Positions 42,892-46,447 of a stretch of 64,000 nucleotides of DNA are shown piece by piece (positions within the stretch are counted from its first letter, which is position 1; the number at the start of each line of letters is the position of its first letter). Source of the DNA: Escherichia coli (lineage in GTDB: Bacteria; Pseudomonadota; Gammaproteobacteria; Enterobacterales; Enterobacteriaceae); the NCBI RefSeq assembly GCF_044324785.1, contig NZ_CP172127.1, one strand, 5' to 3'. The translations under genes were made by a program, and so were the position numbers. The notes under the pieces are model-generated. The model searched no databases, was not told the origin of the DNA, and saw nothing but the letters and a program-made list of their open reading frames with translations.

Positions 42892-42909
42892 GCACTAGTT
42901 CTCTAGTAC
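42892..42909 (-). promoter_or_regulatory. TrpR operator of the aroH promoter
   Basis: Minus-strand GTACTAGAGAACTAGTGC, matching the known aroH trp-repressor operator; overlaps the ppsR stop codon (42903..42905). Confidence 0.85.
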
Positions 42910-43736
42910 ATTCGGCGGCTAAGGCCCATGATATCGAGGATCTTGGTGGCAATCTCTTCTACCGAATAATTGGTACTGTTAATCCACGGGATCTGATTTT
43001 TACGGTACAACGCTTCCACTTCCGCGACTTCCATCCTGCACTGACGAAGCGAGGCATAGCGACTGTTCTCCCGACGTTCCTCGCGAATCGCCGCCAGACG
43101 TTCCGGGTCGATAGTCAGGCCGAACAATTTATGCTGAAGCGGTTTGAGCGACGCGGGTAGCACAAGATTATCCATATCGTCGGCAATAAAGGGGTAGTTT
43201 GCCGCGCGGATACCAAACTGCATTGCCAGATACAGACTGGTGGGGGTTTTACCACAGCGAGAAACACCGAGCAGGATCACCTGAGCCTGGTCCAGATTGC
43301 GCAACGAAATGCCGTCATCGTGGGCGAGGGTGTAATCAATCGCCGCAATGCGCGCATCATATTTATTGAGATTATTAGGGTTAAGGCCGTGGGTTCGGTG
43401 AGCAATCGGCGTTGGATCCAGTTTCATCTCTTGTTGTAGCGGGGCAACCAGCGCCTGAACGATATCCTGGCAAAACCCTTCACTTTGCAAGATGATGGCG
43501 CGAATCTCCGGCAATACGATGGAGTAGAAGACCAGCGGGCGCACACCTGTCTGGTGATAAATTGCGTCAATCTGATCCTTCACTGCCCGTGCACGGCTCT
43601 CATTTTCGACAAACGGCAGCGTAATGCTGCTGATAGTGACGGGAAATTGTGACATTACTGCGTGTCCTAATACCTCCGCAGTTATTGCCGTACCATCAGA
43701 AATATAAAAAACGTGGCGATCAACAGCATTATCCAT
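42903..43736 (-). CDS. ppsR: PEP synthase regulatory protein PpsR (bifunctional kinase/pyrophosphorylase, DUF299)
   Basis: ORF 42903..43736, 277 aa; P-loop GVSRCGKT. Confidence 0.95.
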
Positions 43737-43966
43737 TTTGTTCTTCCCGTGATGCAGACATAATTCTATGAAAGCATAAATTAAAAACGCACAGAAGCGT
43801 AGAATGTTATGTCTGGTTTATAAAATGAACCTTCAATTTTATTATTTATGAAAACAGCATTTCATTTTTATGGTTTCGTTTATACCGATGGTTTATGTGG
43901 AAATTGTCGAATAAAGCAGGTTTGCGCAACGCTGGGATCAGTCTTAAAAAGTAAAAAAATATATTT

Positions 43967-43982
43967 GCTTGAACGATTCACC
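43967..43982 (+). promoter_or_regulatory. Cra (FruR)-like site upstream of ppsA
   Basis: GCTTGAACGATTCACC: near-palindromic TGAAC-G-ATTCA resembling the Cra half-sites TGAAAC/GTTTCA; ppsA is a known Cra-activated gene; about 90 bp upstream of the ppsA ATG. Confidence 0.4.
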
Positions 43983-44068
43983 GTTTTTTTCATCCGGTTA
44001 AATATGCAAAGATAAATGCGCAGAAATGTGTTTCTCAAACCGTTCATTTATCACAAAAGGATTGTTCG

Positions 44069-46447
44069 ATGTCCAACAATGGCTCGTCACCGCTGGTGCT
44101 TTGGTATAACCAACTCGGCATGAATGATGTAGACAGGGTTGGGGGCAAAAATGCCTCCCTGGGTGAAATGATTACTAACCTTTCCGGAATGGGTGTTTCC
44201 GTTCCGAATGGTTTTGCCACAACCGCCGACGCGTTTAACCAGTTTCTGGACCAAAGCGGCGTAAACCAGCGCATTTATGAACTGCTGGATAAAACGGATA
44301 TTGACGATGTTACCCAGCTTGCGAAAGCGGGCGCGCAAATCCGCCAGTGGATTATCGACACTCCCTTCCAGCCTGAGCTGGAAAACGCCATCCGCGAAGC
44401 CTATGCACAGCTTTCCGCCGATGACGAAAACGCCTCGTTTGCGGTGCGTTCCTCCGCTACTGCAGAAGATATGCCGGACGCTTCTTTTGCCGGTCAGCAG
44501 GAAACTTTCCTCAACGTTCAGGGTTTTGACGCCGTTCTCGTGGCTGTGAAACATGTATTTGCTTCTCTGTTTAACGATCGCGCCATCTCTTATCGTGTGC
44601 ACCAGGGTTACGATCACCGTGGCGTGGCGCTCTCCGCCGGTGTTCAGCGGATGGTGCGCTCCGACCTCGCATCTTCTGGCGTGATGTTCTCCATTGATAC
44701 CGAATCCGGCTTTGACCAGGTGGTGTTTATCACTTCCGCATGGGGCCTTGGTGAAATGGTCGTGCAGGGTGCGGTTAACCCGGATGAGTTTTACGTGCAC
44801 AAACCGACACTGGCGGCGAATCGCCCGGCTATCGTGCGCCGCACCATGGGGTCGAAAAAAATCCGCATGGTCTACGCGCCGACCCAGGAGCACGGCAAGC
44901 AGGTTAAAATCGAAGACGTACCGCAGGAACAGCGTGACATCTTCTCGCTGACCAACGAAGAAGTGCAGGAACTGGCAAAACAGGCCGTACAAATTGAGAA
45001 ACACTACGGTCGCCCGATGGATATTGAGTGGGCGAAAGATGGCCACACCGGTAAACTGTTCATTGTGCAGGCGCGTCCGGAAACCGTGCGCTCACGCGGT
45101 CAGGTCATGGAGCGTTATACGCTGCATTCACAGGGTAAGATTATCGCCGAAGGCCGTGCTATCGGTCATCGCATCGGTGCGGGTCCGGTGAAAGTCATCC
45201 ATGACATCAGCGAAATGAACCGCATCGAACCTGGAGACGTGCTGGTCACTGACATGACCGACCCGGACTGGGAACCGATCATGAAGAAAGCATCTGCCAT
45301 CGTCACCAACCGTGGCGGTCGTACCTGTCACGCGGCGATCATCGCTCGTGAACTGGGTATTCCGGCGGTAGTGGGCTGTGGTGATGCAACAGAACGGATG
45401 AAAGACGGTGAGAACGTCACTGTTTCTTGTGCCGAAGGTGATACCGGTTACGTCTATGCGGAGTTGCTGGAATTTAGCGTGAAAAGCTCCAGCGTAGAAA
45501 CGATGCCGGATCTGCCGTTGAAGGTGATGATGAACGTCGGTAACCCGGACCGTGCTTTCGACTTCGCCTGCCTGCCGAACGAAGGCGTGGGCCTTGCACG
45601 TCTGGAATTTATCATCAACCGTATGATTGGCGTCCACCCACGCGCACTGCTTGAGTTTGACGATCAGGAACCGCAGTTGCAAAACGAAATCCGCGAGATG
45701 ATGAAAGGTTTTGATTCTCCGCGTGAATTTTACGTTGGGCGTTTGACTGAAGGGATCGCGACGCTGGGTGCCGCGTTTTATCCGAAGCGCGTCATTGTCC
45801 GTCTCTCTGATTTTAAATCGAACGAATATGCCAACCTGGTCGGTGGTGAGCGTTACGAGCCAGATGAAGAGAACCCGATGCTCGGCTTCCGTGGCGCGGG
45901 CCGCTATGTTTCCGACAGCTTCCGCGACTGCTTCGCGCTGGAGTGTGAAGCAGTGAAACGTGTGCGCAACGACATGGGGCTGACCAACGTTGAGATCATG
46001 ATCCCGTTCGTGCGTACCGTAGATCAGGCGAAAGCGGTGGTTGACGAACTGGCGCGTCAGGGGCTGAAACGTGGTGAGAACGGGCTGAAAATCATCATGA
46101 TGTGTGAAATTCCGTCCAACGCCTTGCTGGCAGAGCAGTTCCTCGAATATTTCGACGGCTTCTCAATTGGCTCAAACGACATGACACAGCTGGCGCTCGG
46201 TCTGGACCGTGACTCCGGCGTGGTGTCTGAACTGTTCGATGAGCGCAACGATGCGGTGAAAGCACTGCTGTCGATGGCGATTCGTGCCGCGAAGAAACAG
46301 GGCAAATATGTCGGGATTTGCGGTCAGGGTCCGTCCGACCACGAAGACTTTGCCGCATGGTTGATGGAAGAGGGGATCGATAGCCTGTCTCTGAACCCGG
46401 ATACTGTGGTGCAAACGTGGTTAAGCCTGGCTGAACTGAAGAAATAA
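44069..46447 (+). CDS. ppsA: phosphoenolpyruvate synthase
   Basis: ORF 44069..46447, 792 aa, [34 protein letters not shown]... Confidence 0.97.

Follow-up and report, generated by a model that had tools for sequence, protein, structure and literature searches.

The question raised by the intergenic region between ppsR and ppsA in Escherichia coli is whether a 16-bp Cra-like sequence lying within it is the site through which Cra activates ppsA, and what else this long gap may carry. The present study analyzes the gap within a window of 64 kb, i.e. the whole stretch of DNA under analysis, together with the corresponding gaps of related species. Almost certainly, positions 43967-43982 are the ppsA promoter's operator for Cra (FruR), a catabolite repressor/activator of the LacI/GalR family. 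This operator is already known and well characterized, so that its confirmation here brings no new biology, but it does show that the operator is recognizable from sequence alone. What is added is a map of the elements of the gap, comprising both promoters, the extended -10, the spacing of the Cra box across 77 species, and the turnover of KdgR-type boxes.

The ppsR-ppsA gap and the species compared

An earlier note on this DNA had described ppsR and ppsA as a divergent pair separated by an AT-rich gap of 332 bp (43737..44068), and the list of open reading frames and the RefSeq annotation both bear this out: RefSeq names ppsR and ppsA on a stretch of strain N3 that is 100% identical to this part of the window, including the 332-bp gap itself, and GC content in 100-bp windows is 0.26-0.37 in the gap versus about 0.45-0.60 in its flanks. 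The window is from E. coli, and the 332-bp gap was found in 5420 of 5426 complete genomes of that species. The haplotype of the gap is uncommon, with at least 99% identity over the 332 bp in just 119 of those 5420 genomes. Compared with K-12 there are five differences (43805, 43844, 43912, 43914, and 43920), none within an element assigned here, and in the alignment 43960-44068 is base for base that of K-12 MG1655.

The ppsR-ppsA region was retrieved from 80 species of Enterobacteriaceae, from which 77 usable gaps were aligned; column identities given below are means over the 72 species outside Escherichia. Of the 77 species whose gap could be measured, 72 had a length of 319-340 bp, and exceptional lengths were seen in Intestinirhabdus alba (L037; 575 bp) and in one further species (L051; 392 bp). 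In Buttiauxella sp. B2 (L078) an insertion of ~120 bp, starting ATACCCGTCATACTTCAAGTT..., directly follows the -10 region in the ppsA promoter and leader, and resembles an enterobacterial ERIC/IRU repeat.

The features of the region are given in Table 1. No RNA family was returned by an Rfam scan of 43500-44300 at E-values up to 1, a generic terminator scan gave no terminators, and a generic promoter scan gave three promoter-like matches where 2.0 were expected, none of which corresponded to a mapped start site; the mapped promoters were missed because they are too weak for the consensus of that scan. Two open reading frames of 55 aa lie inside the gap, at 43848..44015 (+) and 43880..44047 (-), and cover poorly conserved segments at 43867-43936, where single-base gaps separate the aligned sequences.

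Table 1. Features of the ppsR-ppsA region, in window coordinates
Feature	Position	Strand	Basis
ppsR (ydiA) CDS, PEP synthase regulatory kinase/phosphorylase	42903..43736	-	ORF of 277 aa; RefSeq annotation, strain N3
ppsR starts 43766 (30-nt leader) and 43761 (25-nt leader), both weak	43761..43766	-	Kim et al. 2012, via K-12 alignment
Putative ppsR -10 hexamer, TATGCT (-12..-7 of start 43766)	43773..43778	-	Upstream sequence
KdgR-type box 1, decayed in E. coli (below 9-bit cut-off)	43824..43842	.	Matrix scan of 77 orthologous gaps
KdgR-type box 2, ATGAAAACAGCATTTCATT, centre 43857	43848..43866	.	Matrix score; conservation
A/T tract AAAAAGTAAAAAAATATATTT (-74..-54), adjoining the Cra box	43946..43966	+	Partly conserved
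Cra (FruR) operator of ppsA, GCTTGAACGATTCACC (minus strand GGTGAATCGTTCAAGC)	43967..43982	.	Identity to OppsA; consensus match; conservation; position
Putative ppsA -35 position, TTTTTT (2/6 matches to TTGACA)	43985..43990	+	17 bp upstream of -10 hexamer
Putative ppsA extended -10, TGcAAAGAT (T-15, G-14, hexamer -12..-7)	44005..44013	+	Invariant columns; mapped start
ppsA transcription start (G, invariant)	44020	+	Kim et al. 2012, transferred via K-12 identity
ppsA leader with ribosome-binding site AAGGA at 44057-44061	44021..44068	+	Sequence; conservation
ppsA CDS, PEP synthase	44069..46447	+	ORF of 792 aa; RefSeq annotation

The Cra operator in the ppsA promoter

The 16-mer begins exactly at 43967, where it had been placed, and read as its reverse complement it is letter for letter the operator OppsA (ggtgaatcgttcaagc), which Table S5 of PMC9948231 lists as the site bound by Cra at ppsA and which serves there as a working Cra operator in Cra-regulated synthetic promoters. 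The sequence had been likened to a Cra half-site palindrome, and although the likeness to Cra sites stands, the term half-site does not: this is a full, asymmetric operator of two half-sites, one strong and invariant (CGATTCACC) and one weak and variable (GCTTGAACG). The Cra consensus from ChIP-exo and earlier work is gcTGAAtCGaTTCAgc, with TGAATCG as the half-site. Against the ideal palindrome GCTGAATCGATTCAGC the operator matches 12 of 16 positions, i.e. has four mismatches, and is the only site in the gap within four mismatches.

The consensus of Ramseier, which reportedly reads RSTGAAWCSNTHHW, matches the 64 kb without mismatch only once, on the minus strand at 43969-43982. An alternative explanation could be that the 16-mer, set in AT-rich promoter DNA, resembles this consensus by chance and regulates nothing. 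By chance 0.64 matches are expected per 64-kb window, and 43 of 100 shuffles contained at least one; scaled arithmetically to the 332-bp gap, the expectation is ~0.003. The motif match alone is therefore without significance window-wide, and it is conservation and position that settle the identity of the operator. A near-match also occurs elsewhere in the window: GCTGTATGGATTCAAC, at 27482-27497 in the frameshifted espL1 pseudogene, has three mismatches to the ideal Cra palindrome and is most likely itself a chance match. Coincidence would not account, however, for a 16-mer that equals a published functional operator, keeps a fixed spacing to the -10 in 78 of 78 sequences, and is conserved above all other non-coding stretches of the gap except the block at the ppsA start codon. 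Conservation and identity to the published operator thus exclude a chance match, to which we would assign only negligible probability.

The Cra box is present in all 77 other species of Enterobacteriaceae (78 of 78 sequences), in five variants. None of these sequences departs from CGATTCA in the strong half, and the weak half alternates between GCTTGAACG and GCTTACACG (GAAC/ACAC), which fits the known asymmetry of Cra sites. Mean identity at 43966-43986 is 0.92-0.99, compared with 0.2-0.6 in neighboring segments, and the only non-coding block of the gap that is as conserved is 44057-44066 (0.99), which adjoins the ppsA start codon. Of the 5426 complete E. coli genomes, 5357 carry the 42-mer around the box unchanged. 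Measured from its centre, the box stands 30 bp from the TG of the extended -10 in 69 sequences and 31 bp in nine, but anywhere between 86 and 217 bp from the ATG among the 78 sequences; selection has thus fixed the geometry of activator and polymerase and not just the presence of a box.

The position of the box agrees with what has been reported for K-12. In a genome-wide map of starts, Kim et al. 2012 (PMC3415461, supplementary file 2) list one for ppsA, at NC_000913.2 1785185 (-) with 420 reads, and print a leader of 49 nt and the upstream 51-mer TGAACGATTCACC...GATAAATGCG; because the window and K-12 do not differ over 43960-44068, this start is G 44020 of the window. According to a passage in PMC7897506 that cites Negre et al. 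1998, the Cra operator is centred at -45.5 relative to the start of ppsA, and 45.5 bp upstream of 44020 is 43974.5, the centre of the 16-mer, between its C and G. The value of -45.5 is second-hand, yet it is corroborated by the independently mapped start-site data. The reported Cra position therefore falls on the 16-mer and not elsewhere in the gap, and the earlier suggestion that this site activates ppsA is supported jointly by identity to OppsA, by position relative to the mapped start, and by conservation.

It could also be argued that the box serves mainly another regulator of the LacI/GalR family, or KdgR, with which an AACGATT-type core would be shared, and that Cra is secondary. Operators of the LacI family do share a CG-centred palindrome, and a KdgR matrix scores 11.3 bits on 43972-43990, overlapping the Cra box. 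That score lies in the background tail, however, with 17 sites in the window at 10 bits or more, and the literature gives this operator to Cra, whose half-site TGAATCG is exactly the invariant half. A primary role for another regulator is thus very hard to credit, and Cra remains the preferred reading. A figure legend in PMC5555440 describes a comparison of wild type and a cra deletion with a ppsA reporter, and a passage of the same paper names Cra as the sole regulator of ppsA in the database of that time.

In the promoter downstream of the box, the invariant columns among the 72 species are T44005 and G44006 (-15/-14), A44009 (-11), T44013 (-7), and G44020 (+1), so that, relative to the mapped start, it has the TG at -15/-14, the A at -11, and the T at -7 of an extended -10 sigma-70 promoter. 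In the region of the -35 position, GTTTTTTT is conserved across species, and with so weak a -35 the promoter is plausibly dependent on an upstream activator. In the A/T tract next to the box, 43946-43949 do not vary and the run of A has 0.8-0.9 identity over the 72 species; given the class I mechanism, this tract may act as docking DNA for the alpha C-terminal domain of RNA polymerase.

The literature supplies the binding of Cra, its class I mechanism, its response to effector, and the dependence of expression on Cra, while sequence identity, agreement with the start site, and conservation were computed here. Together they support the following mechanism. At low glycolytic flux effector-free Cra would bind the operator centred at -45.5 and, as a class I activator, would hold the alpha C-terminal domain of RNA polymerase more stably on the promoter DNA, making up for the near absence of a -35 in a promoter whose extended -10 is TGcAAAGAT; transcription would then begin at G 44020 to give the 49-nt leader, and on glycolytic sugars fructose-1-phosphate would hinder Cra binding and leave ppsA at its basal level. 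Passages in PMC7897506, citing Negre 1998 and earlier work, describe Cra as activating ppsA in class I fashion, by tightening the binding of the alpha C-terminal domain of RNA polymerase to DNA, and fructose-1-phosphate as interfering with the binding of Cra at the ppsA promoter. The parts of PMC5555440 that deal with reporters give a signal from the native ppsA promoter that was 16-fold higher on acetate than on glucose, and name a copy with a scrambled Cra site as the Cra-independent control of the biosensor. With its Cra site, the ppsA promoter is a textbook case of how flux activates a gene where cells switch between glycolysis and gluconeogenesis, and it already serves as a glycolytic-flux biosensor.

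Further downstream, none of the 12 bases of 44057-44068 (AAGGATTGTTCG), which run from the ribosome-binding site up to the ATG, varies in the 72 species. This exceeds what a ribosome-binding site alone needs, and a post-transcriptional target there is possible; the small RNA ArcZ has a positive effect on ppsA according to a review (PMC11331407). A PdhR box identified by gSELEX, AgTTGGTtatACCAAag, has been assigned to the ppsA/ppsR spacer (PMC7660256), but it maps as its reverse complement, CTTTGGTATAACCAACT, to 44099-44115, i.e. to ppsA codons 11-16 and not to the gap. It lies at ~+88 of the ppsA transcript, and its conservation there is confounded by codons.

The ppsR side of the gap and the KdgR-type boxes

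For ppsR, Kim et al. 2012 (PMC3415461) list starts at NC_000913.2 1785439 (8 reads) and 1785444 (7 reads). A conserved island at 43770-43786 (0.8-1.0 identity over 72 species) holds the putative -10, and the sequence at the -35 position, TACGCT at 43796-43801, is poor. It is possible to imagine that the same Cra site drives this divergent promoter as well and so forms a bidirectional control element, given that ppsR and ppsA are divergent and functionally coupled and that the gap keeps its length of 319-340 bp in 72 of 77 species. The box centre is ~208 bp upstream of the ppsR starts, however, far outside normal activator positions, a distance that makes control of ppsR from the Cra site geometrically implausible; the ppsR starts are weak, with 7-8 reads versus 420 for ppsA, and KdgR-type boxes that are also conserved lie much nearer to the ppsR promoter. 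A role for the Cra site in both directions is accordingly improbable, and we read it as an operator of ppsA.

Between the two promoters, at 43820-43870, three conserved ATGAAA/TTTCAT arms resolve into two KdgR-type boxes. The KdgR matrix was built from only four K-12 boxes, identified by pattern upstream of kdgK, kdgT, and kduI; known KdgR targets include kdgK, kdgT, and kduD (PMC6958661). Box 2 scores 16.5 bits, which is the top of the 64-kb window (the next site scores 12.3) and compares with 24-26 bits for the four training boxes, and its score was reached by 0.15% of shuffles of the gap; its arms are conserved and its spacer is variable. The KdgR consensus of Nasser is said to be a palindrome like AATRAAAYRNYRTTTYATT, and box 2 has two mismatches to this form. 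Box 1 (AATGAAACnnnnTTTTTAT) scores 9.8-20.8 bits, at or above the 9-bit cut-off, in 67 of the 72 species outside Escherichia, and one or both boxes reach at least 9 bits in 70 of the 72 and in all Escherichia sequences. Which box is the stronger depends on lineage, being box 2 in Escherichia and Salmonella. The decay of box 1 and the strength of box 2 look like binding-site turnover, in which the functional box appears to have switched from box 1 to box 2 in those two genera.

Relative to the weak ppsR start, box 1 is centred at about -67 and box 2 at about -91; relative to the ppsA start, box 2 is at -163 and box 1 at -187, so that both are far from either mapped start. Their distances to the ppsR promoter and to the Cra box were similarly conserved, by patterns that missed 12 sequences. 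A passage in PMC6127512, citing Rodionov, Gelfand and Hugouvieux-Cotte-Pattat 2004, includes ppsA and ydiA (i.e. ppsR) in the KdgR regulon, and the same source describes both genes as shown to be KdgR-regulated in Dickeya dadantii; the KdgR-type boxes are consistent with that comparative-genomics prediction of 2004. That the gap also carries KDG-responsive control by KdgR in E. coli, as the matrix scores and conservation would predict, is possible, but we would stop short of calling it probable. If true, PEP synthase and its regulatory kinase would answer to hexuronate or pectin catabolism in addition to Cra, from an unusually distal operator, a position that hints at activation or at an unmapped promoter.

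Several other candidates in the gap were considered. A second Cra site at the TGAAAC in the region of 43824 was rejected because the central CG, which bears most of the Cra information, is not conserved there (many species have TGAAAT or TGAAACA); a KdgR box fits better. A candidate for YpdB, the pyruvate-responsive LytTR regulator, at 43856-43865 (AGCATTTCAT) matches 9 of 10 positions of the published repeat GGCATTTCAT, but it is a single copy, and since a second copy at the 21-bp period is lacking and GGC is not conserved, YpdB was rejected in favor of KdgR; the sequence coincides with the right arm of box 2. At 43816-43830, GTTTATAAAATGAAC has no mismatch to the degenerate Fis consensus GNNNAWWWWWTNNNC and overlaps the left arm of box 1, which is a weak lead. 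The best CRP sites (43896-43911 and 43933-43948) have three mismatches in 10 specified positions and are poorly conserved, and are not assigned here; a passage in a CRP gSELEX study names ppsA as a CRP target, with no site given there. Finally, a palindrome at 43922-43929 (TTGCGCAA) is conserved in Escherichia, Citrobacter, and Salmonella but not in other genera.

Comparison with known Cra and KdgR sites

The closest counterpart of the operator is the ppsA Cra operator of K-12, which has the same 16 bp at the same -45.5, with no differences in the operator or core promoter. That Cra (FruR) operator was reportedly described by Ramseier in 1993/1995 and by Negre et al. 1998 (J Mol Biol 276:355). 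The fruB operator OfruB (gctgaaacgtttcaagaa) has in common with the ppsA site its regulator, Cra, and a TGAA(A/T)CG half-site, but the two halves of the ppsA site are less alike, TCAAGC being the weak one. Cra represses fruB through a site that overlaps the promoter. According to a passage in PMC7897506, Cra activates from the native ppsA site, which is positioned upstream of the -35. In synthetic circuits OfruB has been used in positive-response biosensors and OppsA in negative-response ones (PMC9948231).

For the KdgR-type boxes, the comparison is with those of kdgK, kdgT, and kduI, which belong to an IclR-family repressor. Box 2 likewise has the form RAAAC-N3-RTTTY with AT-rich arms, and agrees with the kdgT box in 15 of its 19 positions. 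Unlike the boxes of kdgK, kdgT, and kduI, those in the ppsR-ppsA gap are not positioned over a mapped promoter.
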